From an uncultured Acidimicrobiales bacterium (GTDB lineage Bacteria > Actinomycetota > Acidimicrobiia > Acidimicrobiales > SHLQ01), in the NCBI GenBank assembly GCA_964390555.1, contig CAYMJU010000125.1:53940-117939 (forward strand): 64,000 bases of DNA, written 5' to 3'. Below are positions 20,567 to 51,579 of this stretch, in pieces. Each line of letters starts with the position of its first letter. Position 1 is the stretch's first letter. The notes under the pieces were generated by a model, which saw nothing but the letters and a program-made list of their open reading frames with translations, was not told where the DNA came from and did no database searches. Position numbers and translations under genes: made by a program.

Positions 20567-20570
<4 letters not shown>
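19935..20570 (-). CDS. HAD-superfamily hydrolase (subfamily IA-like)
   Basis: 211 aa with motif I VVFWDLGGVF, MITNN, and FVDD near the C-terminus. Confidence 0.8.
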
Positions 20571-23928
<3,358 letters not shown>

Positions 23929-24953: not shown

Positions 24954-25991
24954 TCAACTGACGGCGATACCGCCGCCGAGGACCTGGTCGCCGTCGTAGA
25001 GCACGACGCTTTGACCCGGAGCGATGCGGCGCTGGGGCGTGGAGAACGAGATGGTGGAGCCCACGACGACCCCGGCGAGGGGCCGGCCGTGGGCGCTCGC
25101 CTGCACGATCACCGGACCGGTGACGGGCGTGGCCGCCCACACGAAATCGGTCAACTCGACGCGATCGGTCAGCAGTTCGGCACGCCGGCCGAGCCGAACG
25201 GTGGCGGTCGTCACATCCACCGCTACGGCGTAGCGACGCTCGCCGCTCGCCACCCCCAGCGCCTTGCGCTGGCCGATCGTGACCAGCTCGACGGCGGGCA
25301 CCGATCCGACGACGGAACCCGACTCGTCGACCACCCGTCCCGGCGTCAGAGGGATGCGCGACCCGAGAAACGACTCGCGGCCGCCGGTTGCCGTGATGAA
25401 GCAGACGTCTTGGCTATCGGGCTTGGCGGCGGTGCGGAGGCCGAGCACCCGGGCCCGGGTTCGGACCTGGTCCTTGGTGAGATGGCCGATCGGCAACCGC
25501 AGCCGCCCGAGCTGGCCCTGACCGAGCATGTAGAGCACGTAGGACTGGTCCTTGGCACGGTCGGCGCCGCGGGCGACGCGCCGCGTCCCGTCGGCGCGCT
25601 CGACGACCCGGGCGTGGTGGCCGGTCGCCACGGTGGCGAACCCGAGCGCGTGGGCTCGGTCGAATAGCACCGAAAACTTGAGGTGCCGGTTGCACTCGAT
25701 GCATGGGTTCGGGGTGAGCCCCGCCGCATGGGCGGCCACGTAGGGCTCGACCACGTGGCGCTCGAAGGCGTCGCCGAAGTTGAACACGTGGTGCTCGATG
25801 CCGAGGTGGTCAGCGACGCGGCGGGCGTCATCGACGTCGGACACGCTGCAGCAGCCCGAGTCGCTGTCGCCGCCCCACAGCTTCATGGTCACCGCGGTCA
25901 CCCGGTAGCCGGCCTCGAGCAACTCAGCCGCCGCGACCGACGAGTCGACGCCGCCCGACAAGGCGACCAGAACCTCGGGCGGGCCGGTCAT
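24954..25991 (-). CDS. mnmA: tRNA 2-thiouridine(34) synthase
   Basis: ORF trimmed to ATG 25991 (ATGA overlap with the upstream desulfurase stop). The PP-loop VLVALSGGVDSSVAA is present. Confidence 0.92.
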   Translation of the reverse strand: MTGPPEVLVALSGGVDSSVAAAELLEAGYRVTAVTMKLWGGDSDSGCCSVSDVDDARRVADHLGIEHHVFNFGDAFERHVVEPYVAAHAAGLTPNPCIECNRHLKFSVLFDRAHALGFATVATGHHARVVERADGTRRVARGADRAKDQSYVLYMLGQGQLGRLRLPIGHLTKDQVRTRARVLGLRTAAKPDSQDVCFITATGGRESFLGSRIPLTPGRVVDESGSVVGSVPAVELVTIGQRKALGVASGERRYAVAVDVTTATVRLGRRAELLTDRVELTDFVWAATPVTGPVIVQASAHGRPLAGVVVGSTISFSTPQRRIAPGQSVVLYDGDQVLGGGIAVS

Positions 25992-27121
25992 GCGGCCCGA
26001 TCGCGGAGTTGGTGGACCGACGCGACGAAGGCGTGGACGGCATCGTCGACATCGGCGGAGGTGCTGGAGTGACCGAGGGTGAGCCGCACCGACCCGGAGA
26101 TCTCGGCCAGCGGGACCCCCATCGCCGCCAGCACGTGGGATGGCTCGTTGGCCCCGCTCACGCACGAGGCCGCGGCCGATGCGTCGACACCGTGGCGTTC
26201 GAGCAGGAACAGCAGGGCCTCGCCCTCGACGTCGGCCAGGCGCACATGGGCGTGGCCGGGGAGCCGATTTGCTCGGGAGGCGCGGCCCCCGGTCTCTACC
26301 AGGCCCGGCACCTCGGCCAGCAACCGATCGGCGAGGCCGTCGCGTAGGGCGGACACGCGAGCCGTGGTCGCGACCCGCTGTTCGACCAGCTCGCCGATCG
26401 CCGCGGCCAACGCGACCACGCCGGGCACGTTGTGGGTACCGGCGCGGCGGCCCCGCTCCTGGCCACCACCGTAGGTGCGGCTGGCGATCACGACATCGGG
26501 GCCGACGGCCAGGGCGCCCACCCCCTGGGGGGCGCCGAGCTTGTGACCGCTGATCGACACCAGGTCGACGATCTCGCCGAGGTGGGCGAGGTCGAGCCAG
26601 GGCATGGCCTGGACGGCGTCGACGTGGATCAGCGCGTTCGGCGCCGCGCGGCGAACGATCGCCGACACGTCGGCCAGCGGCTGCACGATCCCCGTCTCGT
26701 TGTTGGCCGCCATGACCGACACGAGCGATACACCATCGTCGAGGTTCGCCTCCAGCGCCTGGAGGTCGACGGTGCCGTCCGAGATGACCGGAACGAGCTC
26801 TCCTCCGAGGGCGACGACCGCGTTGAGCACCGCGTGATGTTCGATGGCCGAGCAGAGAACCCGCCCGCCGCGACGGGCGTGCACGCCGAGGACCGCGAGG
26901 TTGTCGGCCTCGGTCCCACCCGACGTGAAGATCACCCCGCCCGGGTCGAACCCGAGTGCGGCGCCCACGACGTCGCGGGCATCGTCGAGTGCTCGCCGGG
27001 CCTGGCGAGCCACCCGGTGTGAGCCTGACGGGTTACCGGCCCGATCACTCATCCAGGGCAGCATCGCGGCGATGGCCGCCGCGCGCACCGGAGTCGTCGC
27101 GGCGTGGTCGAGGTACGCCAT
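25988..27121 (-). CDS. iscS: Cysteine desulfurase (NifS/IscS class)
   Basis: The track starts at TTG 27127, but ATG 27121 (MAYLDHAATTPV) is more likely. The PLP-lysine motif ISGHKLGAPQGVGAL is present, and the gene is coupled to mnmA. Confidence 0.9.
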   Translation of the reverse strand: MAYLDHAATTPVRAAAIAAMLPWMSDRAGNPSGSHRVARQARRALDDARDVVGAALGFDPGGVIFTSGGTEADNLAVLGVHARRGGRVLCSAIEHHAVLNAVVALGGELVPVISDGTVDLQALEANLDDGVSLVSVMAANNETGIVQPLADVSAIVRRAAPNALIHVDAVQAMPWLDLAHLGEIVDLVSISGHKLGAPQGVGALAVGPDVVIASRTYGGGQERGRRAGTHNVPGVVALAAAIGELVEQRVATTARVSALRDGLADRLLAEVPGLVETGGRASRANRLPGHAHVRLADVEGEALLFLLERHGVDASAAASCVSGANEPSHVLAAMGVPLAEISGSVRLTLGHSSTSADVDDAVHAFVASVHQLRDRAA

Positions 27122-27146
27122 ACCCAAAGCCTAGAACCCGCGCCAA

Positions 27147-27245
27147 TAGGTGAGTGCTCGAGGTCCGATCGGTCTCGCTCGCCTGCTGGCGCAGGCGACA
27201 AGTACCACTGTCACATTGGATGGCTCGCCTATCGGCTCGCCCTCT
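27147..27245 (+). repeat. Unclassified ~100-nt interspersed element, copy E1
   Basis: 27164-27245 matches the reverse complement of 39851-39932 at 76/82 positions with no gaps (hand alignment). The terminal TAGGTGA is shared. E1 contains the hairpin TCGCCTGC-tggc-GCAGGCGA (27179-27198) and the palindrome CCGATCGG. Confidence 0.85.
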
Positions 27246-27264
27246 TACGACCGCGCGGCGGCCT

Positions 27265-27278
27265 GTGACCTTGGCCCC
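27265..27278. promoter_or_regulatory. Candidate DevR/DosR-like operator
   Basis: GTGACC-TT-GGCCCC lies 63 nt upstream of the CBS-nirK operon ATG. It matches GGGACC-WW-GGTCCC at 10/12 half-site positions. Confidence 0.35.
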
Positions 27279-27340
27279 TACTCCCCCCATCGCCCCGCGG
27301 GTCCACTGGAGACACCACCGTTCACGAGGAGGAATCGCCG

Positions 27341-27976
27341 ATGAAGACGGTTCGAGATCTGATGACCGTCGATGTGTCGACCGTCGACCGCTCGGAGGTC
27401 GTCGGAACAGTCCGCGATCGACTGCTCGACCGTCGTATCCACGCCGTGCCGGTCGTCGATGCGGGCGGCCGGGTGGTCGGCATCGTGTCGTCGCTCGACC
27501 TGGTCGAGGAGTGGGCGCCGGAGCAGGGCATCACGACTGTGATGTCTACCGATGTCCGTTTTGTGGACTCCGGCGCCACAGTGGCCCAGGTCGCCAGCGC
27601 CATGCTCGACGAGCGGATCCACCACCTGGTGGTGGTCGATGGAACCGAGTTGGTGGGCATCGTGTCGTCACTCGATCTGCTGAGGGAACTCGCCCACCGG
27701 ATCCCCGAACAGTTGCGGCCCGCACCGGAGCGGAGCGACGAACGCGCCGAGCGCGGTGATCTGGTCGTCGTGCACGGCAAGGCGATCGGCACGAAGGAGC
27801 GCCGGGGCGTGATCACCCGCACCGGACCGGACGGCGAGGCGCCGTACTTCGTCACCTGGCTCGAGGACGATCACGACCCACCCCACGAGGTCATGTTCTT
27901 CCCCGGCTCCGACACCCACATCGAACACCCGGTGCGAAACGCGGCCGGAACCGGCGCGACCCAGGAGGCATCATGA
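27341..27976 (+). CDS. CBS-pair protein with C-terminal DUF1918-like domain
   Basis: 211 aa with a strong GAGGAGG RBS. Two CBS repeats (VRDLMTVDV...VGIVSSLDLV and VMSTDV...VGIVSSLDLL) are followed by GDLVVVHGKAIGTKERRGVITR...YFVTWLEDDHDPPHEVMFFPGSD. Confidence 0.8.
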   Translation: MKTVRDLMTVDVSTVDRSEVVGTVRDRLLDRRIHAVPVVDAGGRVVGIVSSLDLVEEWAPEQGITTVMSTDVRFVDSGATVAQVASAMLDERIHHLVVVDGTELVGIVSSLDLLRELAHRIPEQLRPAPERSDERAERGDLVVVHGKAIGTKERRGVITRTGPDGEAPYFVTWLEDDHDPPHEVMFFPGSDTHIEHPVRNAAGTGATQEAS

Positions 27977-29382
27977 CCACGACGCTGATCCCGCCCACGC
28001 CTCGAATCGATGAGGCGCCGAACCCCGGGGATGACCGGCAGGTGCGCCTTGAGGGGTGGCTGATCCTCGTCTCGTTGCTCGCGGCGGTGAGCATGATCGG
28101 AGCTATCGTCGCCGCCGGCATCGCCATCGTGCGAACCGACGACGAGCAGCCGGCAGCCGTCGGCACGCCGATGACCGTCGAGGTCACACTCGGCGAGTTC
28201 TTCGTGGAGCCGGCAACGCTCGAGGTCCCAGCCGGGACCGACCTGACCCTCGTGGTCACCAACGATGGGGCGATGCCCCACGACCTGAAGCTCGACGGCG
28301 AGCGCGGTACGGACATGCTCGACCCGGGCCAGACCCAGGAAGTGTCCCTCGGCGTGATCGAGGAGCCCGGCGAGGCCTGGTGCACCGTCCCGGGTCACCG
28401 AGAGGCGGGCATGTCGATGCAGATCACCGTCTCGGGTGATGCGCCCGGTAACGGGCCCCCAGCGCCTGGCTCCGGTGCGGCGTCGATCGATGCCGCCCTC
28501 GAACCCGGGCCGGAGTGGGTTCCGTTCGACCCCGCGCTCGAACCGGCACCCGGCGCCACTGAGCACGAGATCGAGCTGCACGCCTCCGAGGTGGAAGTCG
28601 AGGTGGCTCCCGGCGTGACCCAGCTCATGTGGACGTTCGGGGAACAGGTGCCAGGGCCGGTGCTGCGCGGTCGAGTCGGCGACCTGTTCACCGTCACTCT
28701 CGTCAACGACGGCGAGCTCGGCCACTCGATCGACTTCCACGCGTCGCGGGTCGCGTGGAACGACGAGATGCGCACGATCGAGCCCGGCGAGTCTCTCGTC
28801 TACCAGTTCCGGGCCGAGTACGCGGGCGCGTACATGTACCACTGCGGCACGCCGCCGGCGCTGCACCACATCGGCAACGGGATGTACGGCGCGATCATCA
28901 TCGATCCGCCGAACCTGGCGCCGGTCGACCACGAGTTCGTCGTCGTCCAGAGCGAGCTGTACCTCGGACCCGACGGCGAACCCGGTGACCTCACGAAGAT
29001 GGTCGGCGAGGACTGGGACGCCGTCGTGTTCAACGGTTACTACAACCAGTACCGCTACGCGCCGATCCGGGTGGAGACAGACGAGCGCGTCCGGGTCTGG
29101 GTCGTCGACGCCGGGCCGTCGGAGAACTCGGCGTTCCACATCGTCGGCACCGTGTTCGACACCGTGTACAAGGAAGGCGACTACCTTTTGCGACCCGGCG
29201 AGGGCCAAGGCGGTTCGCAGGTCCTCGACCTCCAGCCCGCGCAGGGCGGATTCGTCGAGTTCAGTTTCGCCGAGGGCGGTCTGTACCCGATGGTCACCCA
29301 CAAGTTCGCCAATGTGGGCAAGGGTGCCCTCGGCCTGTTCCAGGCCGGCGAGGTCCAGTCCGACTCCGGCGCCGAGCACTGA
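27973..29382 (+). CDS. nirK: Copper-containing nitrite reductase (NirK-type two-domain MCO) with N-terminal TM anchor and extra cupredoxin domain
   Basis: 469 aa with an ATGA overlap with the CBS gene. The N-terminal cupredoxin carries H..C..H..M (MPHDLKL...CTVPGHREAGM). The core has HSIDFH (T1/T2 His plus catalytic Asp), YHCGTPPALHHIGNGMYG (His-Cys...His...Met), AFHIVG and THKF. Confidence 0.8.
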   Translation: MTTTLIPPTPRIDEAPNPGDDRQVRLEGWLILVSLLAAVSMIGAIVAAGIAIVRTDDEQPAAVGTPMTVEVTLGEFFVEPATLEVPAGTDLTLVVTNDGAMPHDLKLDGERGTDMLDPGQTQEVSLGVIEEPGEAWCTVPGHREAGMSMQITVSGDAPGNGPPAPGSGAASIDAALEPGPEWVPFDPALEPAPGATEHEIELHASEVEVEVAPGVTQLMWTFGEQVPGPVLRGRVGDLFTVTLVNDGELGHSIDFHASRVAWNDEMRTIEPGESLVYQFRAEYAGAYMYHCGTPPALHHIGNGMYGAIIIDPPNLAPVDHEFVVVQSELYLGPDGEPGDLTKMVGEDWDAVVFNGYYNQYRYAPIRVETDERVRVWVVDAGPSENSAFHIVGTVFDTVYKEGDYLLRPGEGQGGSQVLDLQPAQGGFVEFSFAEGGLYPMVTHKFANVGKGALGLFQAGEVQSDSGAEH

Positions 29383-29414
29383 GCTGACAGTCTTCGCTCG
29401 ACTCGATCGTGCGA

Positions 29415-30206
29415 TCAGATGCCGGCTCGGGCGTCGGAGCGCTGCTGGTAGGCGGCGGCGACGCAGGCGAGGTACACGTCGGGCGGCAGCTCGCGCGGGA
29501 GCGATTGTCCGGTCCGTTCAGCGACACGCGTCGCCAGCTGGACAGCCAGGCTGCCTCGGGCGGCCGGCGTGAGCGATGCGCTGCGCAGCAGCAGCGAGCG
29601 CACCAGCGCATAGTCCGCCGGACGAAGCCGGGCCAGGTCGAGTCGCGCCATGAACGACTCGTAGCCGTAGGGCACCGAGAACCGCACCGGGGCCAGGGTG
29701 CCGGCCCCGAGCCGCTCACGAATGACCAGGGTGCCCGCCGCCATGTCACCGAGACGTTGCCCTCGCGACGACACGATCATCGAGGCCAAACCGATACCTC
29801 CGAAGCTGACGAACACGTCGATCAGGTCGAGCATGGCGCGGGTCGACGCCGCCCGGAATCCGACCGGCCCGCCCGCGGTGGTAACCACGCGAAGCCCGAG
29901 GGCGAGCTTGCCGATACTGCGACCCCGGCACCACAGCTCGAAGACGACGGGATAGGCGAACAAGGCCAGGAAGACTGCGACGACGAGCACGATCACGACG
30001 GTGGACTCGGCTTCGGTTCCGGCGAGCAGCGCGAGGCCGAGGGCGAAGAACATCGCGTAGAGCGCCGCCGCGATGACCATCAGGTCGATCAGGCGGGCGA
30101 GAATGCGCGACCCGACGCCGGCCAGCGAGAATTCGAGCAGCACCGCCTCGGGCGTGACAAGCCCATTCGGTCGGCCAGGCATGGCTCTACTGTGCACAGA
30201 GCCCAC
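29415..30206 (-). CDS. RDD-family membrane protein
   Basis: 263 aa. SRILARLIDLMVI, RGRSIGKLALGLRVV and RLGDMAAGTLVIRE are typical of the RDD domain. Confidence 0.75.
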   Translation of the reverse strand: MGSVHSRAMPGRPNGLVTPEAVLLEFSLAGVGSRILARLIDLMVIAAALYAMFFALGLALLAGTEAESTVVIVLVVAVFLALFAYPVVFELWCRGRSIGKLALGLRVVTTAGGPVGFRAASTRAMLDLIDVFVSFGGIGLASMIVSSRGQRLGDMAAGTLVIRERLGAGTLAPVRFSVPYGYESFMARLDLARLRPADYALVRSLLLRSASLTPAARGSLAVQLATRVAERTGQSLPRELPPDVYLACVAAAYQQRSDARAGI

Positions 30207-30223
30207 GGTAGTGTTCTCGCTGC

Positions 30224-31234
30224 TTGGACATCGACCGTTACATCGTCGAGAACAGCGCCTTCTGGAGCGAGCTCGAGGCCGCGACTGCGGCCACGCGGCG
30301 GCGGCGAAACCTGCATGGAGCGTCGATCGACCGGCTCATGACCCTCTACCAGCGCGCGTCGAGCCAGCTGTCCTATGTACGCGTCACCTTCGACGACCCG
30401 GCGCTAACCAGCCGACTCACCACCCTGGTCGCCAACGCGAGAGCGACGATCTACGGGACCCGACCGCGGTCGTGGCGTAGCGCGATCGATGGCGTCACCT
30501 ACGCGTTTCCGGTCGCGCTGTGGCGGATCCGCTGGTTCGTCGCCGCGTCGGCCGCGCTCTTCTTCGTCCCGGCCGTGATCTTCGGCGTGTGGTTGGCCAA
30601 CAGCGACGTGGCGCTCGATGCCGAGCTACCGGCGGAGTATCGCGAGGCGTTCGTCGAGGAGGAGTTCGAGGATTACTACTCATCGGCTCCGGCGGCCCAG
30701 TTCTCGACGCAGGTGCTGATCAACAACATCCAGGTCTCGTTCCTCGCCTTCGCATCGGGCATCGTCGTGTGCGTCGGCACAGCGTGGGTGCTCATCACGA
30801 ACGGTCGCCTCATCGGCGCGACCGCCGGCGTCTTTCACAACGTCGACCAGCCGGGCCATTTCTGGGGGCTGGTGCTCCCGCACGGTCTGCTCGAGATCAC
30901 CGCGGTGGTGATCGCCGGTGCGGCCGGCCTCCGCATCGGGTGGGCGATCGTCGACCCGGGGGATCGATCCCGAGCCGTCGCCCTGGCCGAGGAGGCCCAC
31001 AGCGCGGTGACGGTCATCATCGGCCTCGTCGCGGCGTTCGTGGTCGCCGGGATCATCGAGGGCTTCGTGACGCCGAGCGATCTGCCGACGGCGATGAGAG
31101 TCGGCGTCGGGGCGCTGGTCGAGTTGGCGTTTCTCACCTACGTCGTCGCGTTCCATCGGGGGCCACCGAGCCCGAACCCCGTCCGCGCACGACGGCAGGG
31201 TCAGAGGCGTCCCGTCGCCTTGGTCTTGATGTAG
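30224..31234 (+). CDS. SpoIIM-like (DUF95) integral membrane protein
   Basis: 336 aa. An N-terminal soluble helix region is followed by multi-pass segments with HGLLEITAVVIAGAAGLRIGWA, typical of stage II sporulation protein M-like proteins. The gene is divergent from the RDD gene. Confidence 0.7.
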   Translation: MDIDRYIVENSAFWSELEAATAATRRRRNLHGASIDRLMTLYQRASSQLSYVRVTFDDPALTSRLTTLVANARATIYGTRPRSWRSAIDGVTYAFPVALWRIRWFVAASAALFFVPAVIFGVWLANSDVALDAELPAEYREAFVEEEFEDYYSSAPAAQFSTQVLINNIQVSFLAFASGIVVCVGTAWVLITNGRLIGATAGVFHNVDQPGHFWGLVLPHGLLEITAVVIAGAAGLRIGWAIVDPGDRSRAVALAEEAHSAVTVIIGLVAAFVVAGIIEGFVTPSDLPTAMRVGVGALVELAFLTYVVAFHRGPPSPNPVRARRQGQRRPVALVLM

Positions 31235-32511
31235 GCGTCGGCCAGCCGGGCCGCCAGGAGGTGGGGCGGCTCTTCGATCACGGTGGCGCCGACGCGGCGG
31301 AGCCTCGCCGCCACCCGCTCACGCTCGACCAGCGCGGATCGCGCCGCTACGCTTCGATACGCCGCCGCTCCATCGACGGGGGGCTCGGCGGCCCACGCCT
31401 CGACCGCGGGGTCTCGCACGGCGGCAACGACGACCAGATGTGATCGCGTGACCAACGGCAGAGCGGGGATCAGGTGGAGCTCAATCGCCTGCTCGACCAG
31501 GTCGGTGAACACCACGAGCATCGTGCGTCGCCGGAACCGAGTGAGCGAGTGAACGAACGCCTGCCGGTAGTCGCTTTCCACCAGCCGCGCCTCGAGATCG
31601 AAACACGACTCCAGGATGCGCCCGAACTGGGCCCGTCCGGCGTGCGCTGACACGACCGACCGGACCTGGTGATCGAACGCGACCATGCCGAACCGGTCGC
31701 CGAGTCGGGTGGCGACGGTCGTCAACGCGAACACCGCGTCGAGGGCGTGGTCGAGTCGAGGCACCGCGTCGACGCGGCCCGCCATGAGCCGTCCGGTGTC
31801 GAGCAACGCCAAGACGGTCTGGTTGCGCTCGGCCCGGTAGGTGCGCACGATCGGGCGCCCGGTGCGGGCGGTCGCGGCCCAGTCGATCCGCCGGGTCTCG
31901 TCGTCGTCGGTCCATTCGCGGAGCTGATCGAAGTCGGTTCCGCCCCCACGGCCGCGGGCGGACCGCAACCCGACATCGAGCAACCGGGCCTGACGGATGC
32001 GCAACTCGGCTTCGTCTCGTGAACGAAAAACGGGGTGCACACGAATCGTGCCGGGCAGCGAGCGGGTGCGCTGGCGAGACGCCAGGCGTCCCGGGCCGTC
32101 GACCCGGACGACCACCGCGGTCGGCTCGAAGCGACCCCGGCGCGTCGGGCACAGTCGGGTGGCCGCGGTCGCCGACGACCCCGGTGGCAGGACCAAGCGG
32201 AACCGGCGGGTCGCGGCCAGGAGCGACGGGGCGAGCTCGTCGGCTACGGCCACGTGAACCACACGTCCGGTCGGGTTCACGACCGTCCATCGAAGCGACG
32301 CGGGCTGGTCGAGCACCGCGACCGACGGCGCCATTCGGGAAACCTCGATGCGACCAGGATCGACCGCAAGGGCGGCGTCGATCGCGCCGACGCACAGCAC
32401 GACCCCCGCAACGACGAACATCGTCGCCGGCTGATCCCACGGCGCCAGCGCGGTGGCGACCGACGTGACGGCCACCAACACCGCCAGGCGCCACGTGGGG
32501 ATCGGGAGCAC
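31201..32511 (-). CDS. DUF58 (vWA-like) protein
   Basis: 436 aa with two N-terminal TM segments and the motif GTDFDQLREWTDDDETRRIDWAATARTGRPIVRTY. It lies downstream of MoxR. Confidence 0.8.
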   Translation of the reverse strand: MLPIPTWRLAVLVAVTSVATALAPWDQPATMFVVAGVVLCVGAIDAALAVDPGRIEVSRMAPSVAVLDQPASLRWTVVNPTGRVVHVAVADELAPSLLAATRRFRLVLPPGSSATAATRLCPTRRGRFEPTAVVVRVDGPGRLASRQRTRSLPGTIRVHPVFRSRDEAELRIRQARLLDVGLRSARGRGGGTDFDQLREWTDDDETRRIDWAATARTGRPIVRTYRAERNQTVLALLDTGRLMAGRVDAVPRLDHALDAVFALTTVATRLGDRFGMVAFDHQVRSVVSAHAGRAQFGRILESCFDLEARLVESDYRQAFVHSLTRFRRRTMLVVFTDLVEQAIELHLIPALPLVTRSHLVVVAAVRDPAVEAWAAEPPVDGAAAYRSVAARSALVERERVAARLRRVGATVIEEPPHLLAARLADAYIKTKATGRL

Positions 32512-32515
32512 GGTT

Positions 32516-33469
32516 CTATCTCGGCGCCGGGACGGTGAGCAGCAGGCCGTCGAGCACGCCGTCGGCGGTCACGCCATCGAGCTCGGCCTCGGGGGTGAGC
32601 GAGATTCGGTGGCGCAGTGCCGGTTTGGCGACCGCCTTCACCTCGTCGGGACCGACATAGGACCGGCCGGCGAGCCAGGCCCACGCCTTGGCGGCGCGGA
32701 GCAGCGCGGCCGTTCCACGAGGCGAGACTCCGAGAAACACCGACGGCTGGGTTCGGGTCGCCCGGCACAGCTCGACGATGTACGCCACAACGGCGTCATC
32801 GACGGTGACGGCTTGGACGGCTTGACGGGCCCGGATCACGTCAGCCGCCGATGCCACCGGCCGCACGCCGGCACCCACCACGTCGTGGGGGTCGAGTCCC
32901 TGATCGTGGCGCCGCGCCACCATCCGCTCCTCGTCGGCCGAGGGGTAACCCACGACGATCTTGAACAGGAAGCGGTCGATCTGGGCCTCGGGCAGCGGGT
33001 AGGTCCCCTCGTACTCGATCGGGTTCTGCGTGGCGATCACGAAGTACGGCTCGGCCAGCGAGCGGGTCTCGCCCCCGACCGACACCTGTCGCTCCTCCAT
33101 GGCCTCGAGAAGCGCGGCCTGGGTCTTGGGTGGGGTGCGGTTGATCTCGTCGGCCAGCAGCACGCTCGTGAACACCGGACCAGGACGGAAGCGGAATTGG
33201 CCCGTGGCCTGCTCGAAGATCATCTGGCCCACGACGTCCGATGGCATCAGGTCGGGCGTGAACTGGACCCGAGCGAACGGTAGGTCGAGAGCGACGGCGA
33301 GGGTCTTGGCGAGCAGCGTCTTGGCCACCCCCGGCACGCCTTCGAGGAGAACGTGCCCGCGGGCGAGCAGGGCCGCGACCAACGCCGAGATCGCACCGTC
33401 CTGGCCGACCACCACCTTGGCGATCTCACCGCGGATGGCGAGGACTGGTGCTCGGCTGTCGTCGTTCAT
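32516..33469 (-). CDS. MoxR-family AAA+ ATPase
   Basis: 317 aa with Walker A LLEGVPGVAKT and Walker B VLLADEINR, plus IATQNPIEYEGTYPLPEAQIDRF. Confidence 0.92.
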   Translation of the reverse strand: MNDDSRAPVLAIRGEIAKVVVGQDGAISALVAALLARGHVLLEGVPGVAKTLLAKTLAVALDLPFARVQFTPDLMPSDVVGQMIFEQATGQFRFRPGPVFTSVLLADEINRTPPKTQAALLEAMEERQVSVGGETRSLAEPYFVIATQNPIEYEGTYPLPEAQIDRFLFKIVVGYPSADEERMVARRHDQGLDPHDVVGAGVRPVASAADVIRARQAVQAVTVDDAVVAYIVELCRATRTQPSVFLGVSPRGTAALLRAAKAWAWLAGRSYVGPDEVKAVAKPALRHRISLTPEAELDGVTADGVLDGLLLTVPAPR

Positions 33470-34623
33470 GGTGGACTCCTGTGGGTGCGGACGGTCTCGC
33501 GGTCGGTTCTGTGGGTGCCTCGACGGCCGAGCGCGCGGCGGACGTCGGCGACCGCGCGCCCATAGGTGACGAGGTCGCGTTCGGTTCGCACGACGCTCGG
33601 ATCGAGCGCGGCGATGACCACGGCCGGATCGAGAGCGGCCCGCGCCGCTACGGCGCCTGCGTCAGCGGCGCCGGCCCCCAGCCCCAGTGGCCCGAGAGTC
33701 GCCACGGCGAGGTCGGCATGGAGGCGCTGAGCGGCCTCGGTAGCGCGCCGGCTGCGCTGCCACAACGCCCCGGTTGCGACGATCAAGTCGGAGCCCTCCA
33801 GCAACACCGGTTGCGGTTCGGGCACCGGCCGGCCGAGGCGACGGCTCCGCCACCACATCGCGACTGCGACCGCGACCACGAGTTGCACGACCGCCCACTT
33901 CAAGCCGTCGTCGACGAGCGAGCCGAGGGTCCGGTCGCCGCCAACCAGGGCGGCTCGGCTCGCGAAGCCGACGCGGGTTCGGTCGGTCGGAGCAAACAGC
34001 GCGGCCGCCAGCTCCGAGTTGTCACCCTGGTCGAGGTGCTGGTTCACCAAGACGTAGGGCGACACGCCGACGATCGCTCCGTCGAGGCGCCCGTCGACCA
34101 CCACGGCCGGCCCGATGTCGGCCACGCCCTCATACGTGTCGAAACACCCCACGAACCCGTTCCCGGGATCATCGACGTCGAAGGAAACGAACGAATCCGC
34201 GACCAGCTCGTCGATGCCCGACAAGGCATCGATGGGGCAGAGCTCGTCGGTCGCGCTGATGCCCGACCGATCGATCGAACCGGTGACGACAGGGAGCAAG
34301 GCCGATGCGGGGTCGAGCACGACGACCACTCCCCCGTCGTTCACCCACGACCGCAGCCGCGTGTCGATCGACAAGTCGTCGGGGCCGTCCGCGACGACCA
34401 GCACGTCGACGGCGCCTCCGAGGCTGTCGTCGAGCGGAACCGACTCGTCGACATCGGAACCGAGCCCCTCGGCGAGCCGCACCAGTCCCTGGTATCCGAG
34501 CGGCCCGACGCTGCCGGGATCGAAAGCGGCCCGGTTCGTGCCGCCGCGCCCGATACCGACGATCACGGCGACCACGATCGCGATCAGCACCGTCGCCGCC
34601 AGCGCGCCACGACCACGGCTCAC
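33466..34623 (-). CDS. Membrane-anchored protein of the MoxR/DUF58 neighbourhood (DUF4350-like by position)
   Basis: 385 aa with a GTGA overlap upstream and an ATGA overlap downstream. It has an N-terminal TM segment (AATVLIAIVVAVIVGI) and a late TM segment. The family call is from context only. Confidence 0.5.
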   Translation of the reverse strand: MSRGRGALAATVLIAIVVAVIVGIGRGGTNRAAFDPGSVGPLGYQGLVRLAEGLGSDVDESVPLDDSLGGAVDVLVVADGPDDLSIDTRLRSWVNDGGVVVVLDPASALLPVVTGSIDRSGISATDELCPIDALSGIDELVADSFVSFDVDDPGNGFVGCFDTYEGVADIGPAVVVDGRLDGAIVGVSPYVLVNQHLDQGDNSELAAALFAPTDRTRVGFASRAALVGGDRTLGSLVDDGLKWAVVQLVVAVAVAMWWRSRRLGRPVPEPQPVLLEGSDLIVATGALWQRSRRATEAAQRLHADLAVATLGPLGLGAGAADAGAVAARAALDPAVVIAALDPSVVRTERDLVTYGRAVADVRRALGRRGTHRTDRETVRTHRSPP

Positions 34624-35351
34624 GTTGCCACCCCCTCACGCTCTCGCACCCGCGCCGCGGCGGCGCGCACCGCGGCAGCGTCGTCGGCAGTCGCCGGCCG
34701 CCCCGCGTACCAGACCTCCTCGAGAACCCGGCCAGCACCGTCGACGCAGTCGACCAAGCCAACACCGTCGACGCAGTCGACCAAGCCAACACCGTCATTG
34801 GTGGGTGCTTCGGTGCGCGCCGCGACGGCGGCGGTCACCTCGCGCGGCGTCCAGCCCGGCACGTCGTCGATGACTGCGCCGGCCAACAGTTCCGCGACGA
34901 GCACGCGGTACCACGCCCGAACCGCCGCCCGCCACCGCCCTTCGCTCTCGAAGAGCTCGGCGCGGCGCCGGAGAGCATCGACGTCGGCGGGACGGTCGAC
35001 CGAGATGTCGAGATCGCGGTCGCGGCGACGCCCCCTCGGCGCCCAGTTCTCGATCGCCCGCACGACCAGCCATACCACCACCACGGCGATCCCCGACAGG
35101 ATCAGCCAACCGAGGATCGACGAGCCACCGCTTCCACCACCGCCGCCGCCCACATCGATGTCCGGGAACAGGCCGCCGATCCAGTCGAAGATCCGTTCGA
35201 GCAGCGACGGCGACGGCTCGTCGAAGTCCGAGTCGGCGAGCACCCGACCGGCCAGCTCCTTGATGGATTCCGGATCGCGAGGCGGCTCGGGCGCGGGCAG
35301 ATCGGCCGCGGCTCCACGAGGTGCCGATGTCGTCGATCCCACCGATGTCAT
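34620..35351 (-). CDS. Membrane protein, DUF4129-like C-terminus
   Basis: ORF 34620-35801 trimmed to ATG 35351 (ATGA overlap with the upstream gene). It has a Gly-rich segment, the TM segment ILGWLILSGIAVVVVWLVV, and a C-terminal region RAWYRVLVAELL...PGWTPREV. It contains a 27-bp tandem repeat. Confidence 0.55.
   Translation of the reverse strand: MTSVGSTTSAPRGAAADLPAPEPPRDPESIKELAGRVLADSDFDEPSPSLLERIFDWIGGLFPDIDVGGGGGGSGGSSILGWLILSGIAVVVVWLVVRAIENWAPRGRRRDRDLDISVDRPADVDALRRRAELFESEGRWRAAVRAWYRVLVAELLAGAVIDDVPGWTPREVTAAVAARTEAPTNDGVGLVDCVDGVGLVDCVDGAGRVLEEVWYAGRPATADDAAAVRAAAARVREREGVAT
34736..34796. repeat. 27-bp tandem repeat, 2.3 copies, in frame in the DUF4129-like gene
   Basis: CACCGTCGACGCAGTCGACCAAGCCAA occurs at 34736-34762 and 34763-34789, followed by a 7-nt partial copy. 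It encodes GVGLVDCVD twice. Confidence 0.85.
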
Positions 35352-36208
35352 CGGGGTGCCGGGCCCATCTGCTCTATGACTCGAAGCTCGATGTCGAGAC
35401 CCTCGTGACGGCACCGGAGGTCGAGGTATTGCACGACCGCGCAGCTGGCGACGACAGCCGTCGTCAGAACGCTTACCGCCACCGACACCACCGCGGTCGT
35501 GACCCAACCGGGATCGACACCGGTCGCCACCCCGAACGCCTCGGGCAAGACGGTGAGGCTTCCCTCGATCACGATCGTCACGAGACCGACGAGGATGCAC
35601 GCCCAGAACACTTCGGCACTTCGGCCGCGCACGAGCCTCCACGAGCGCTTCATTGCCGCGATCGGCCCGATCCGCTCGATCGCCAGGGCCGGCGCGGTCA
35701 CCGAGTACCGGGTCATGGCGTACAGCGAGCCGATTCCGCACGTCACCAAGCCCGCGGCTTCGACGAGGTGGACGAGGAGCCAGGCCAGCGCCACCGCCCA
35801 CGAGAGACGGCCAAGCTCGACCATCGTCGCGCCGAACCGCGGTCGACGGTCCTCGTGCCAGCCCACGACCAGACGACCGAGGGCGGCGGCGGTCAGCGGC
35901 AGGACGAGGCTGCCGGCGGTGAGCGACCAGACCACCGAGGCCGTGGTGCGCTGGTCACCACCACCGGCTCCCGATGCACCCCAGATCGACTCGATCACCC
36001 CGTCGAAGCCTGCGGCGAGCAGATCACGGTTGAGCCAGGCCGCCACCAGCTCGACGGGCACGACGATCGCCGCGGTGACCGCGAGCACGATCGGGTCGGA
36101 CTTCACCAGATCGAACCCCGCGTCGATCACCTCGACCGGGCTGCGAGGTCGCACCGTCACCCTCGGCCGACGTGGGGAGCTGCTCGCCGCCATCATGCTG
36201 GCGCCCAT
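35348..36208 (-). CDS. Hypothetical multi-pass membrane protein (first gene of the MoxR operon)
   Basis: 286-aa ORF with about 6 hydrophobic segments. It is translationally coupled to the next gene. Confidence 0.55.
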   Translation of the reverse strand: MGASMMAASSSPRRPRVTVRPRSPVEVIDAGFDLVKSDPIVLAVTAAIVVPVELVAAWLNRDLLAAGFDGVIESIWGASGAGGGDQRTTASVVWSLTAGSLVLPLTAAALGRLVVGWHEDRRPRFGATMVELGRLSWAVALAWLLVHLVEAAGLVTCGIGSLYAMTRYSVTAPALAIERIGPIAAMKRSWRLVRGRSAEVFWACILVGLVTIVIEGSLTVLPEAFGVATGVDPGWVTTAVVSVAVSVLTTAVVASCAVVQYLDLRCRHEGLDIELRVIEQMGPAPR

Positions 36209-36281
36209 TCTGGATCATCAGCGACCGCCGGTTGTGATCACGGGGCCCGCGCGACCCGGAATCGCTCGGTGCCGGCGGCGT

Positions 36282-37262
36282 TCATGTGCGCGTCTCCAAG
36301 CACGGGTGGGCGGTCAGATGGTCGAGTAGCTCGCTCAGGCTGGCCTCCGCGACGCACACGACCGAGTCCGCGGCGCCGTAGTACATGCGCAAGGTGTCTC
36401 CGTCGTCGTCGACCACCCAGCCGCACGGAAACACCACGTCGGGGACGTCGCCGGACCGCTCATAGGTGGCGTGGGGCCCGAACACCCATTCGTTGCCCCG
36501 AGCCAGGACGGTCGTCGGGTGATCCCGGTCCAGGAGCGCCAGGCCGACCCGGTAGAGGGACCCCGAAGCAGTGGTGCGCACGCCGTGATACGCGATGAGC
36601 CACCCTCGATCGGTCGGCAATGGAGGCGGCCCCAGGCCGACCTTGTTGGCGTCCCACCAGCCCCCGCGACGGGCGGCGAGGAGGACCTGACTGTCGCCCC
36701 AATGACGCAGGTCGGGGCTGAACGAGATCCACATGTGCGCGCCGAGGCCCACCATCGCCGGCGCGGGCCGGTGGATGAGCGCGTAGCGACCGTCGAAGGT
36801 GACCGGGAACAGCGCGGCATCCTTGTCCTCGGGAGGCTGGAGAACACCATGCCGCTCGAAGGTGACGAAGTCACGCGTGGTCGCGCGGCAGACGAGAGGC
36901 CCGCCCTGCGAGAACCCGGTGTACACGACGTGGTAGAGCTCGCCGATCCGGGTGATGCGAGGATCCTCGATTCCCCAGTGTTCCTCGTATCGATCGAGAT
37001 CGGGGATAAGCCCGGCGTCGAGATCGATCTTCCAGCCGGTCAACCCGTCGGGGCTCGTTGCGACGGCAAACCGGGACAGGCCTGTGCGGTCCTCGATGCG
37101 GACCAGCAGCAACGTCGTGTCGCCGATCTGCACCGCTCCCGGATTGAACACCGCGTTGGTCATGATCGGGATGTCGTGCGCCGTGAGGATCGGGTTCCCG
37201 CTGTAGCGGCGGAACATCTCGCGCGGGTCACATCGAAGCATCGAATCCTCCGACTCGAGCAT
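36282..37262 (-). CDS. GH130-family glycoside phosphorylase/hydrolase-like protein
   Basis: 326 aa. NPILT...FNPGAV, WGIEDPRITRIG, YHGV and LRMYYGAAD match the GH130 beta-propeller pattern. Confidence 0.8.
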   Translation of the reverse strand: MLESEDSMLRCDPREMFRRYSGNPILTAHDIPIMTNAVFNPGAVQIGDTTLLLVRIEDRTGLSRFAVATSPDGLTGWKIDLDAGLIPDLDRYEEHWGIEDPRITRIGELYHVVYTGFSQGGPLVCRATTRDFVTFERHGVLQPPEDKDAALFPVTFDGRYALIHRPAPAMVGLGAHMWISFSPDLRHWGDSQVLLAARRGGWWDANKVGLGPPPLPTDRGWLIAYHGVRTTASGSLYRVGLALLDRDHPTTVLARGNEWVFGPHATYERSGDVPDVVFPCGWVVDDDGDTLRMYYGAADSVVCVAEASLSELLDHLTAHPCLETRT

Positions 37263-37268
37263 CGACGC

Positions 37269-38426
37269 TCATGAGGCCAACCGGTCCACGCCCACTGGCC
37301 GACGGTCGGCCGCCCGCTCGAGAAGACCCGAGTAGCGGTGGCCGACGTTCGACCAGTCGAGTTCGCCGGCCTGTCGACGGGCCGCCCGCTGCATGGCGAC
37401 CGATGCCGCCGGATCGGTGAGCACCCGTCCGAGGGCGAGGGCCATGGCCTCGGGATCGCGATGGTCCACGACGAGACCGCTTCCTGCTGAGAGCATCTCG
37501 ATGGCGTGAGGGAACGCGGTGGCGACGACCGGCTTGCCACTGGCGAGCGCTTCCACGAGGACACCGGACGTCACCTGATCGACAGACTCGTACGGCAGGA
37601 GTACCACATCGACAGATCGGACCAAAGCGCGAAGCGATTCCCAGTCGCGGTACGAGTCGTCGAGCGTGAGAGCATCGGCGACACCGTGCGATCGTGCGAG
37701 GTCGGACAGGCTGCTCCGATACTGCTCTCCATGAGCGGCGCGAACCCGGGGGTGCGTCTGCCCCGCAACGATGTAACGAGCATCGACGCCAAACCGCCGG
37801 AGCGACGCGAGGGCGCCGATCGCCGTCTCGATTCCCTTCCCAGGGCCGATCAACCCCCACGTCAGAATCGTCGGCCGAACGCCCGCAGGCGAGATGTCGG
37901 CGCCGACGTTGAGCGTCGCGCCGTGTGGCACCAACTCGACCTTCCCCGGATCAACGGCATGGGAGCGAAGCAGTCGCGACCGCGCGGTGCCACTCTGCGT
38001 CACGACGACCGCCGAGCGGTCGCAGAGGGTCTCGACGATCGTCTGCTGCCGCGCCGATGGCGACCGGAGGACAGTGTGTAGAACGGTGATCAGCGGAACG
38101 GTCGACCGCTCAGCGAGCTCGACGACATCGATCCCATCGGGCCCACCGAAGATGCCGAACTCGTGCTGCACGATGGCCACGTCGAATCGGTCCAGTCGGC
38201 GGGCGACACGATCGCCCGCATGCCGGTCGTCGATTGCCCAGACCATGTCGATCTCGGCTCGGTCCGAGATCGACGGATCGTCAGGGGCGACGATCCGAAC
38301 GACGCTGTGCCGCCAGCCGGGCCGATCGCCCATGAGCGCCGTACGAAGGTTCTCGCTGAACGTCGCCAATCCACACCGAGTCGGCGGATACGTACCGACC
38401 ATGACCGTCGAGAGGGTCATCGACAT
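37269..38426 (-). CDS. GT4-family (GT-B) glycosyltransferase
   Basis: ORF trimmed to ATG 38426 (AGGAG 6 nt upstream). MSMTLSTVMVGTYPPTRCGLATF is a typical GT4 N-terminus, and the C-terminal E-x7-E region is VLLPYESVDQVTSGVLVEALASGKPVV. Confidence 0.8.
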   Translation of the reverse strand: MSMTLSTVMVGTYPPTRCGLATFSENLRTALMGDRPGWRHSVVRIVAPDDPSISDRAEIDMVWAIDDRHAGDRVARRLDRFDVAIVQHEFGIFGGPDGIDVVELAERSTVPLITVLHTVLRSPSARQQTIVETLCDRSAVVVTQSGTARSRLLRSHAVDPGKVELVPHGATLNVGADISPAGVRPTILTWGLIGPGKGIETAIGALASLRRFGVDARYIVAGQTHPRVRAAHGEQYRSSLSDLARSHGVADALTLDDSYRDWESLRALVRSVDVVLLPYESVDQVTSGVLVEALASGKPVVATAFPHAIEMLSAGSGLVVDHRDPEAMALALGRVLTDPAASVAMQRAARRQAGELDWSNVGHRYSGLLERAADRRPVGVDRLAS

Positions 38427-38505
38427 AACTGCTCCTGTGTTGTCCGGACCGCGGTTCGCCCGCATCGCCCACCCCGAGCCTCACGTGACGCCCATCCGGC
38501 CACCA

Positions 38506-38519
38506 GGGACCTTCGGCCT
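38506..38519. promoter_or_regulatory. Candidate DevR/DosR-like operator
   Basis: GGGACC-TT-CGGCCT lies 80-93 nt upstream of the GT4 ATG. The 15-mer CAGGGACCTTCGGCC (38503-38517) is identical to 51577-51591. Confidence 0.4.
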
Positions 38520-38553
38520 CTTGACCGTTGCGACACCGCGCCGCTTCACCGGT

Positions 38554-38964
38554 TCACGAAGCAGGGGAGTGAGCCGTTCTGATCGCGTGGAGCAGCGGGG
38601 CCAGGCGTACCTGTTTGGGCAGGCAGGCGAACGCCCCGGCAGCCAGGCATCGCTCGGCGACCGCGTCATCGAGCAAGCCCGAGTGCACGATGTACGCCGT
38701 CAGTGGCAGTTCGGCTCGAAGCGCGTGGATCAGGTCCGCTCCCGTTCCGTCGGGCAGCCGGTAGTCGATGAGCATCACCGCTGGTGACAATGGGGGCGCC
38801 GCGATCTGGGCTGCGGCGATCGAGCCGGCCCAGCCGACGACATCGACATCGAGCTCGGCGCTCAGAACATCGACGAGCCCCTCGCGGGCCCGCAAGTCGT
38901 CCTCGACGATGAACAGCGAACGTACCGGTCGCGGTTCGAGGTCCGGCCGACCCGCAGCGTCCAT
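38554..38964 (-). CDS. Stand-alone response-regulator receiver (REC) domain protein
   Basis: 136 aa with the acidic pocket FIVEDD, the phospho-acceptor context VMLIDYRLPDGTG, and a conserved K in ACLPK. No output domain is present. The gene begins 5 nt after the devR-like stop. Confidence 0.75.
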   Translation of the reverse strand: MDAAGRPDLEPRPVRSLFIVEDDLRAREGLVDVLSAELDVDVVGWAGSIAAAQIAAPPLSPAVMLIDYRLPDGTGADLIHALRAELPLTAYIVHSGLLDDAVAERCLAAGAFACLPKQVRLAPLLHAIRTAHSPAS

Positions 38965-38969
38965 GGCCT

Positions 38970-39680
38970 TCAGAGTGCTCGGCGGCGACGCTCGGCCATC
39001 CGCGCCGCCGCCGCGGCGACCTCGGTCCGGCGGTCCATGCTCAGCTTGTCGAGCATGTTCGACACGTAGTTCTTGATCGTCTTCTCGGCTAGGTACATGG
39101 TCTCCGCGATCTGGCGATTCGACCGACCTTCTCCGATCAACTCGAAGATCCGCCGTTCCTGATCGGTCAGTCGAGCCAGCAACTGATCGTCCTCGTCGCC
39201 ACGGCTGGCGCGGGCTCGCGCTTGTTTGACCGTCGCGGCGTCGAGCGTCGGCCGGCCGGCCGCTATCGAGCGGAGCGACGACACGATCTCGTTGCTGCGC
39301 AACTCCTTCAACGCGTAGCCCTGGGCACCGGCTTCGGCCGCCGCGACCACCGCCTCGTCGTCGGCGAACGACGTGAGGATCAACACGGCGAGGTCGGGAT
39401 GACGCTCTCGCAACCGGCGGCAGGCATCGACACCGTTACCGTCGGGCAGTCGAACGTCGAGCACGGCGATGTCGACCTGACCGGGCCCGATCCGGGCCAG
39501 GGTCTGTTCAACCGTGCCCGCCTCGCCGACCACCCGGAACTCGCCAGTCGACTCGAGGAGCTCGCGCAGACCCTGGCGCACGATCTCGTGGTCGTCGAGC
39601 AGGAACACGCGCACCGGGTCTCGATCCTCGGCGTCGCCGGTGTCCTCCATTGCGGCCATTTCAGCGCTCGTCATGCCCAT
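38970..39680 (-). CDS. devR: NarL/LuxR-family response regulator, DevR/DosR orthologue
   Basis: ORF 38970-39731 trimmed to ATG 39680. VRVFLLDDHEIVRQGL, DIAVLDVRLPDGNG and LTDQERRIFELIGEGRSNRQIAETMYLAEKTIKNYVSNMLDKLSMDRRTE closely track M. tuberculosis DevR as I recall it. Confidence 0.85.
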   Translation of the reverse strand: MGMTSAEMAAMEDTGDAEDRDPVRVFLLDDHEIVRQGLRELLESTGEFRVVGEAGTVEQTLARIGPGQVDIAVLDVRLPDGNGVDACRRLRERHPDLAVLILTSFADDEAVVAAAEAGAQGYALKELRSNEIVSSLRSIAAGRPTLDAATVKQARARASRGDEDDQLLARLTDQERRIFELIGEGRSNRQIAETMYLAEKTIKNYVSNMLDKLSMDRRTEVAAAAARMAERRRRAL

Positions 39681-39715
39681 GGCGCAACTGTCGAGCACCA
39701 CATGTCGCTCACGTA

Positions 39716-39729
39716 GGGCCCAAAGTCCC
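39716..39729. promoter_or_regulatory. Candidate DevR/DosR-like operator in the devR / ATPase divergent region
   Basis: GGGCCC-AA-AGTCCC lies about 43 nt upstream of the devR-like ATG (39680) and about 110 nt upstream of the ATPase ATG (39833). Confidence 0.45.
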
Positions 39730-39832
39730 ACGGATCATCCCGGAGTTTGTTGCCCGGGTGACCATCGGCCCTGGCCCGGACTGGTCGCCCGACCCACGAT
39801 GAGCACCACCACGATGCAGAGGGGATGCGCGG

Positions 39833-44574: not shown

Positions 44575-44625
44575 GTCGGCTCCTGAATCTCAGATGAGCG
44601 TCCCGCTCGCGAGGTCGGCGCGACA

Positions 44626-44639
44626 GGGCCGAAGGTCAT
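44626..44639. promoter_or_regulatory. Candidate DevR/DosR-like operator
   Basis: GGGCCG-AA-GGTCAT (reverse complement ATGACC-TT-CGGCCC) shares 13 nt, GACCTTCGGCCCT, with the box at 51580. It lies 52 nt upstream of ATG 44574. Confidence 0.35.
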
Positions 44640-44768
44640 TCGACGAGTCGCAACGTCGATGGAAGGTCCATGCGGACCAGCCGGCGCACCATCAGCAGAG
44701 GCGCCAGCCCGACGGCGGCGGGACTTTGGACCATGTGACCCGGGCTACGGTGGCGATCGAATTGACCC

Positions 44769-45878: not shown

Positions 45879-45915
45879 CGCCCGACGGGCCGCCATCGAA
45901 TCCCGAAGAGAATCA

Positions 45916-46713: not shown

Positions 46714-46893
46714 GGCCTGACGCCATCCGGCGATCACCTCATCGGCGAGGTTCCAGGCTTGTGGCCGTCGATCGTGCTGGCGACTCCGGCCGCGCGGCTG
46801 GCTCAACGGCGCCGTCAACGGATTCCCCCCCCGGACCAGACCCGAACGCACGGATGTTGCTAGAAGATCTCGGAATCGGACAGATACCCGGCG

Positions 46894-50648: not shown

Positions 50649-50658
50649 GTCGTGATCG

Positions 50659-51552: not shown

Positions 51553-51579
51553 GCTGCGCGCGGAGCCACGGGCGCGGCA

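Follow-up and report, generated by a model that had tools for sequence, protein, structure and literature searches.

A low-copy family of small palindrome-rich repeats, probably mobile, with one copy read in frame near the start of a P-type ATPase gene in an uncultured Acidimicrobiales bacterium

Two near-identical copies of a palindrome-rich sequence of 99–100 nt, here called E1 and E2, lie 12.6 kb apart on opposite strands in a 64,000-nucleotide stretch of DNA (the window, that is, the whole stretch analysed) from an uncultured Acidimicrobiales bacterium, and a third copy, E3, is found on another contig, bringing the known copies to three. The element has inserted at three unrelated places, and the E2 insertion is young enough to have kept a perfect 15-bp target duplication. 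E1, E2 and E3 probably form a low-copy family of non-autonomous, palindrome-rich mobile elements of about 99 nt that resemble RPEs and MITEs, and as such they constitute a new family within an already known category of small selfish, non-coding repeats and not a new kind of system. The two copies in the window are the following.

27147–27245, minus strand: element copy E1, with sense strand 5'-AGAGGGCGAGCC...TCACCTA-3' corresponding to the minus strand of the window
39853–39951, plus strand: element copy E2, the 99 nt between the two copies of a direct repeat, with the plus strand as sense strand

The two inverted copies had been reported in an earlier, sequence-only reading of the window, and they are real: the core of E1 (27164–27245) aligns without gaps to the reverse complement of 39851–39932 with 76 of 82 identities (92.7%), a result reproduced with both MAFFT and blastn. 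Over their full length (99 and 100 nt) global alignment gives 88/100 identities, with 11 substitutions and one indel in the form of a 1-nt gap. The homology to E1 spans 39851–39950, its first 2 nt overlapping the end of the direct repeat that brackets E2. Two blocks of the core, 25 and 20 nt in length, occur exactly twice each in the window, against 0.00 and 0.07 occurrences expected from shuffles, and nhmmer with all filters off found no copy or fragment beyond E1 and E2 within the 64 kb. The further elements of the sequence-only reading, namely an 8-bp hairpin (27179–27198), the palindrome CCGATCGG (27165–27172), a 26-nt imperfect palindrome (27219–27244) and the motif TAGGTGA at the outer end of both E1 and E2, are all present. 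The 11–12 nt beside TAGGTGA, which had been described as unrelated between the copies, can in fact be aligned and represent the most diverged patch of the element; the peptide encoded by E3 fits the version carried by E1. Terminal inverted repeats were sought by aligning the first 45 nt of each copy with the reverse complement of its last 45 nt, and none better than in shuffled sequence emerged, the local alignment scores of 14 for E1 and 12 for E2 being equalled or beaten by 134/500 and 273/500 shuffles, respectively.

The window has a G+C content of 69%, and the lineage of the host is poorly sampled. Core genes lie to the left of E1 (ilvBN, ilvD, gatA/gatB, a PASTA kinase, ligA, an mnmA-like gene and a cysteine-desulfurase-like class-V aminotransferase), and from E1 rightward the window holds a DosR-type stress island comprising a CBS-DUF1918 protein, a cupredoxin/multicopper oxidase, a MoxR-DUF58 set, glycosyltransferases, a LuxR-type response regulator, two P-type ATPases, a PEP-utilising enzyme and a formate/nitrite transporter, among others. 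Palindromes like the DosR/DevR box, G(G/T)GAC(C/T)TTGG(C/G)CCCTAC, occur seven times at three or fewer mismatches, against 0.73 expected, five of them on the plus strand (27265–27281, 51580–51596, 8312–8328, 47534–47550 and 1729–1745) and two on the minus strand (39713–39729 and 60765–60781). Two of these boxes are perfect, one upstream of the CBS-DUF1918 gene and one at the start of the LuxR-type response-regulator ORF, and each stands on the inner (AGAGGG) side of an element copy, with the inner end of E1 at 19 nt from its box. The window further contains two tandem arrays, the first (21271–21364, 24-nt period, about 3–4 copies) inside the ORF at 20570–21904 that encodes a PUA/SAM-methyltransferase, and the second (46061–46132, 18-nt period, about 4 copies) in an unannotated stretch.

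E2 is located within the reading frame of one of the P-type ATPases, immediately behind its first codons, where it is enclosed by a perfect direct repeat.

39838–39852, plus strand: left copy of the 15-bp direct repeat CGATCCGGGGCTCAG, of the target-site-duplication type, covering ATPase codons 3–6 (DPGL)
39952–39966, plus strand: right copy of the 15-bp direct repeat CGATCCGGGGCTCAG, 100% identical to the left copy at a start-to-start spacing of 114 nt (38 codons)
39833–42406, plus strand: P-type cation ATPase gene carrying E2, 857 aa, with every ATPase domain intact

The left copy of the repeat begins with the third base of codon 2 and ends with the second base of codon 7, and the right copy encodes a second DPGL, after which follows the conserved N-terminal motif GLSxxEAxxRL...GPN. 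The repeat, matching at 15/15 positions, directly abuts both ends of the E1/E2 homology; the sequence-only reading, correct in recognising E2 as a copy, had overlooked it. Since short direct repeats within 200 nt are rare in the 64 kb (only 10 families, mostly tandem or coding repeats), and since no 15/15 match occurs in the background at the spacing of the E2 repeat, chance bracketing of E2 is effectively excluded. Because the perfect repeat brackets E2 alone, E2 must have been inserted as a unit of 99 nt. Element (99 nt) and one repeat (15 nt) together measure 114 nt, or 38 codons, and are stop-free in the ATPase frame, so that E2 is read through as 38 extra N-terminal residues: the insert follows codon 6, E2 itself occupies codons 7–40, and the protein begins MNDPGL-[RGRADRRALQCDSGISRLRQQASETDRKLKQSPSDPGL]-SALEAARRLADDGPN. 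Taking out the insert (element plus one repeat) restores an empty-site DNA sequence, ATGAACGATCCGGGGCTCAGCGCACTG, from which the ATPase N-terminus would read MNDPGLSALEAARRLADDGPN, in agreement with the short N-termini of this protein family, such as MTPDHGLTEVEAAERRRTHGPN at the start of its closest homologue (P0002, 57% identity). The ATPase is identical to a single NCBI protein (P0001, on a 119-kb contig), the next relative being only 57% identical, and the 38 extra residues are found in none of the 44 homologue N-termini inspected. There is no in-frame ATG, GTG or TTG between E2 and the conserved N-terminal motif, and E2 must therefore be translated if the pump is made. E2 is thus a stop-free, in-frame insertion that leaves its gene intact, as is the case for RPE-like palindromic elements. 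The earlier placement of both copies in divergent promoter regions holds for E1, which is situated in a divergent intergenic region, and fails for E2, which lies within the ATPase reading frame.

Two further observations concern the ATPase genes of the island. The second P-type cation ATPase (56838–59585, minus strand) has an open frame of 916 aa and a normal N-terminus without the element. The contig that encodes the 57%-identical ATPase (ERZ25039524 contig_6134, L003) carries the same island genes as window positions 39833–51627 in rearranged order, those in common being Usp, CBS-peptidase, the PEP-utilising enzyme, an AAA_33 kinase, the ATPase, the formate/nitrite transporter and DUF2157; on that contig the island genes form a co-directional operon, without the element, in which the ATPase start overlaps the preceding gene.

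The inverted arrangement of E1 and E2 could be taken to mean that they are the two ends of a 12.8-kb composite or invertible segment (27147–39950) carrying part of the stress island, and the TAGGTGA/TCACCTA termini do face outward, with core housekeeping genes to the left of E1 and the DosR-type island inside. The 15-bp direct repeat that E2 has for itself largely refutes this arrangement. In addition, the sequences beyond the two outer ends are, by eye, not duplicates of each other, island-type genes continue past E2, and the interior ORFs scanned revealed no recombinase domain, and we consider such a segment very improbable.

The third copy was found at the protein level. Six-frame translations of E1 and E2 were joined into a two-row alignment, and a search with the resulting profile against 5.8 billion proteins gave a single match, P0121 (E=2.9e-5). 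The sensitivity of this search is imperfect, P0001 having been missed despite a 34-residue exact match, and because a word-indexed profile search of this kind can miss element-bearing ORFs, the one extra copy is a lower bound. P0121 is a 264-aa MacB-type ABC ATPase encoded on a different NCBI contig of 33 kb, and it begins with the element-encoded peptide MSRTRDDRRALQFDSGISRLRQQASETDRTPSVHPS, translated in the frame and orientation that the P-type ATPase also uses. Two proteins that are 80–81% identical to P0121, P0122 and P0123 (232 and 234 aa, respectively), are 30–32 residues shorter and begin at the ABC domain. As judged from these protein comparisons, E3 is likewise an insertion specific to its lineage, placed at the 5' end of a gene unrelated to the others; it is read only as protein, from which no clean target duplication is readable. 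In the genome of a relative the start of the ABC ATPase gene overlaps the stop of the upstream gene, which makes it operon-internal, and E3 thus appears to reside at an operon-internal gene junction. E3 is furthermore a mosaic, E2-like in its middle (…GIS…) and E1-like at its TCACCTA end (T-S-H as compared to TSSTH in E1), from which it follows that at least three lineages of the element exist and that E2 did not come about as a single duplicate of E1. Each of the three copies points in the direction of its neighbouring gene and lies within about 30 nt of the gene start; the common orientation toward the nearest downstream start that had been noted for E1 and E2 thus extends to E3.

That E2 arose in a single repair or recombination event, in which the ATPase gene was broken within its first codons and mended by copying about 100 nt from E1 or a similar template, the 15-bp repeat then stemming from fill-in of staggered ends, is in our estimation rather unlikely. 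The copies being only 12.6 kb apart and inverted, with no terminal inverted repeats and no transposase nearby, would suit such an event, and Ku/LigD end joining is common in Actinobacteria. It leaves unexplained the third copy, which stands on another contig before an unrelated gene and combines both sequence types; moreover, E2 is not a recent copy of E1, the two being 88% identical as against 15/15 for the repeat around E2, and E1 and E2 make use of the same element ends. The same third copy removes the alternative named in the sequence-only reading, a local segmental duplication with no further copies elsewhere.

E1 resides in a 219-nt divergent region between the ATG of the desulfurase-like gene (27121, minus strand) and the ATG of the CBS gene (27341), with its TCACCTA end 25 nt upstream of the former. 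The features at this site are as follows.

25988–27121, minus strand: class-V aminotransferase (cysteine-desulfurase-like) gene, downstream of E1, with the mnmA-like gene next
27131–27145, unstranded: outer copy, CTAGAACCCGCGCCA, of a candidate decayed target duplication of E1, in the register set by E2
27244–27258, unstranded: inner copy, CTTACGACCGCGCGG, of the same candidate duplication, in the register set by E2

In the E2 register the flanks of E1 match at 8/15 positions, which is marginally above chance (background P(>=8/15)=0.031), and this match is no more than suggestive of an older, decayed duplication. A TAGGCT motif is present at −12 to −7 of the desulfurase-like ATG (window 27122–27146, minus strand), with no convincing Shine-Dalgarno sequence there, which suggests a leaderless transcript driven from the TAGGCT box; should the gene indeed be leaderless, then E1 would occupy the −35 region, immediately before the −10 box, and would not belong to that mRNA.

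Assembly at this site deserves mention. Independent Logan contigs of SRR9952630 (k=31) match the window at 100% identity to the left and right of E1, yet they break inside it, one (L005) ending at 27162 and another (L002) beginning at 27188. Such a break can arise from a coverage gap at 27163–27187, from an exact 85-nt repeat (27133–27217) elsewhere in the sample, or from strain variation. The contig is of the metagenome type and E1 is evidently a difficult spot for assemblers, and with this in mind we considered a repeat-induced chimera as the cause of the element being found inside the ATPase gene. A perfect 15-bp duplication, joined exactly in frame to a gene that is intact downstream, is not what a chimera would produce, and the Logan contigs agree with the window on either side of E1, so that an assembly artefact can hardly be credited.

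The element is rich in palindromes, and RNAalifold applied to the sense strand returned two hairpins (A and B), a weak CCGAUCGG hairpin and a long-range stem around hairpin B.

27219–27244, minus strand: hairpin A in E1, GAGGGC-GA-GCC-GAUA-GGC-GA-GCC(A)UC, 6+3 bp with a symmetric tandem G.A internal loop
27175–27198, minus strand: hairpin B in E1, 8 perfect base pairs, UCGCCUGC-GCCA-GCAGGCGA
39888–39897, plus strand: 5' half of the long-range stem in E2, alignment columns 38–47, GUGG..UUUC
39937–39947, plus strand: 3' half of the long-range stem in E2, GAAA...UCAC, pairing with 39888–39897

Hairpin A has one broken pair in E1 and is fully paired in E2 (39852–39877); at the DNA level this segment can also be read as GGCGAGCC directly repeated every 12 nt. 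Hairpin B of E2 (39898–39921) has one A.G mismatch in the 8-bp register, and an alternative register of 9 pairs holds in both copies. The notion that substitutions spare the structured blocks was consequently half right: two of the six core substitutions fall within these blocks, the one at 27195 (G in E1, T in E2) disrupting the 8-bp stem of E2 and the one at 27221 (T in E1, G in E2) a single palindrome pair of E1. In the simple 8-bp and 6+3-bp registers each copy thus has one damaged hairpin, not the same in E1 as in E2, a pattern that resembles neutral decay of a master copy whose palindromes were complete. In the RNAalifold consensus, by comparison, none of the 11 substitutions breaks a pair, nor does the indel. 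The long-range stem (columns 38–41 with 94–97 and 44–47 with 87–90; in E1, 27199–27208 with 27150–27160) is the sole helix with compensatory changes: the two hypervariable patches of the element are the two halves of its inner helix, CUUG/CGAG in E1 and UUUC/GAAA in E2, with two compensatory pairs (C-G to U-A and G-C to C-G) and a U.G pairing that exists on the sense strand only. A helix of this kind arose in 0.25% of column shuffles and in 0.65% of random-mutation trials, rising to 8% when the positions of the substitutions were kept fixed, and these figures are to be read with the provisos that covariation cannot be established from two sequences (a control gave 127/500), that the structure was derived from the same two sequences, and that the sequence inferred for E3 predicts a C-C mismatch within the covarying helix. 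In folding, the sense strands (z −2.7 and −3.1) surpass both shuffled sequences and the antisense strands, for which z is −1.4 and −1.8. Taken together, this is no more than suggestive of the element requiring a folded strand.

These folding results bear on the proposal that the element is a portable structured RNA, either a cis-acting 5' module or an sRNA expressed from the sense strand, whose copies are kept for the effect of the fold on mRNA stability or translation, with spread as a secondary matter. The co-directional placement of all three copies close to a gene start, the strand on which the better fold is found, the intact consensus pairs and the complementary hypervariable patches would all be expected of it. 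Its case is weakened, next to the reservations about the helix given above, by the absence of a shared pathway among the genes beside the three copies (desulfurase-like, P-type ATPase and MacB-type ABC ATPase), by E2 lying inside an ORF, by E1 probably being upstream of a leaderless promoter and possibly outside the mRNA altogether, and by what the searches for RNA families and transcription signals returned. The Rfam search of the whole window gave no match at the gathering thresholds, in line with the sequence-only reading, which had recognised no Rfam family, and at E<=5 gave one noise match only, to a fungal snoRNA that scored 11.2 bits where the threshold is 48; no sigma-70-type promoter, no outward promoter and no intrinsic terminator was found in the element. 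The regulatory-RNA and sRNA options left by that reading are weakened accordingly, a purely regulatory RNA is unlikely, and we hold the structured-RNA proposal as a whole to be improbable, if worth keeping in mind. A riboswitch or other known RNA was rejected on the Rfam result, as was, on the signal search, an outward promoter or terminator within the element. The selfish, RPE/MITE-like option of the same reading is supported by the 15-bp duplication of E2, by the 38-codon in-frame insertion and by the third copy on the other contig.

Searches of larger collections were made with exact patterns and with profiles. The element gave no blastn match among plasmids and phages. The exact 21-mer CCACTGTCACATTGGANGGCTC, which is too strict a pattern in that E3 differs within it, gave among 185,579 species-representative genomes (GTDB) only a chance match, in a Bacteroidales MAG with unrelated flanks. 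Exact CAGCAGGCGAGCGANACCGATCGG and CCAATKTGACAGTGGNANTTNTCG gave 0 matches in JGI metagenomes, and a viral scan (IMG/VR) likewise gave 0 matches; these collection scans demand exact 21–24-mers, and the source genome is absent from the collections. No element copy was found by nhmmer with the E1/E2 profile in the loci of two relatives (L003 and L004). Among the window ORFs scanned, Pfam detected no transposase, integrase or reverse-transcriptase domain. A template/variable-repeat pair of a DGR was rejected on several grounds: the 11 substitutions are mixed and not adenine-specific, E2 lies at the 5' end of a gene, and the scanned window ORFs have no reverse-transcriptase domain. For an IS200/IS605-type hairpin element, the presence of the 15-bp duplication and the position of E1 and E2 on opposite strands 12.6 kb apart were reason for rejection.

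Taking the mobile-element interpretation as the preferred one, we propose that an enzyme encoded elsewhere in the genome moves the element in trans and makes cuts staggered by about 15 bp. This enzyme would recognise the sub-terminal structures (hairpin A, hairpin B and the long-range stem) instead of terminal inverted repeats. Copies may then persist only at sites that tolerate them, a short way before the 5' end of a gene or a short way into it, and the surviving orientation would be that in which the transcript is stop-free in the frame that is read. Afterwards the copies would decay neutrally, which could explain why each has one damaged hairpin. Set against this interpretation are the small number of copies, three with one of them as protein alone, the lack of terminal inverted repeats and of a transposase, integrase or reverse transcriptase among the scanned ORFs of the window, the unusual length of the 15-bp duplication, the marginal significance of the E1 duplication, the lack of a clean duplication readable for E3, and the failure of the exact-pattern collection scans to reveal a relative.

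A 15-bp target duplication is unusually long for bacterial insertion-sequence families. The absence of terminal inverted repeats in combination with a clean duplication of this length fits poorly with the usual MITE and insertion-sequence families, and the partner enzyme could reveal unusual integration chemistry. A bolder reading, which we regard as doubtful, has the element ride an undescribed insertion mechanism that acts on a folded single strand (RNA or ssDNA), does without terminal inverted repeats, generates 15-bp duplications and targets co-directional gene 5' ends. It could proceed by reverse transcription of a structured transcript, target-primed as in SINEs, or through an integrase resembling Cas1/casposase that takes a miniature element as its substrate. 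If this were true, the complementary hypervariable patches would be a structural requirement of the mobilising enzyme.

A P-type ATPase of a stress island has gained a 38-residue segment at its N-terminus without destruction of the gene. Elements of this sort cause wrong or over-extended start-codon calls, of which the ABC ATPase P0121 may be an example, and they may break short-read assemblies, a possible instance being the Logan contigs that are interrupted inside E1.

In the length of its duplication the element recalls casposons. Duplications of 15 bp are known for casposase/Cas1-type integrases and for a few insertion-sequence groups; casposons, which depend on a Cas1-type integrase, create target duplications of 14–15 bp, measure 8–20 kb, have terminal inverted repeats and encode Cas1 and a polymerase. 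Apart from duplication length, none of this (the size, the terminal inverted repeats, Cas1 and the polymerase) is seen here, and the likeness is only a lead on the class of enzyme that might cut with such a wide stagger. IS200/IS605-derived PATEs and REP/BIME elements lack terminal inverted repeats and have conserved imperfect sub-terminal hairpins as recognition features, both of which recur in the present element. PATEs and REP/BIME insert without target duplication and with a strand bias tied to replication, whereas E2 has its 15-bp duplication, E1 and E2 occupy opposite strands, and the window contains no HUH (TnpA/RAYT) gene. A third comparison is with the MIRUs, which are actinobacterial repeats of 46–101 bp, oriented with transcription and situated at gene junctions in operons, where their frames overlap the start and stop codons of the neighbouring genes, and which form tandem VNTR arrays. 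By description, the element shares with them the actinobacterial host, the orientation with transcription and, for E3, the apparent operon-internal junction; unlike MIRUs, its copies are single units in which no tandem structure was found.

MITEs such as Correia, ERIC, Chunjie and Nezha are small, non-autonomous and interspersed, have target-site duplications, are often co-transcribed with their neighbours and can fuse with them in frame (PMC10969869). The present element is likewise small (99–100 nt) and, with three copies known on two contigs, probably non-autonomous and interspersed, and E2 has a target-site duplication (15 bp); MITEs are, however, defined by terminal inverted repeats, which are absent here, and no parent insertion sequence was identified among the window ORFs scanned. 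Target duplications of MITEs are typically 2–9 bp, much shorter than 15 bp. RPEs, finally, are non-coding, palindrome-rich repeats without a recognised transposase of their own that occur in frame in unrelated genes and are translated as an extra peptide (PMC10969869). The differences are that the present element belongs to a high-GC member of the Actinomycetota and not to the Rickettsiales, that it is known in three copies as opposed to dozens, that E2 has a clear 15-bp target duplication, and that only one of the three copies lies inside a gene, the other two being located at a gene start or outside it. The likeness to RPEs is one of behaviour and not of sequence, homology being unexpected given the 69% GC and the phylum. 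It is a likeness nonetheless in size (about 100–150 bp for RPEs), in palindromic make-up, in being non-coding and without a recognised transposase, and in being inserted in frame and translated, as with the 38 residues that E2 adds to the P-type ATPase, and the element thereby provides an actinobacterial example of small palindromic repeats entering protein-coding genes in frame, a phenomenon best known from Rickettsia.
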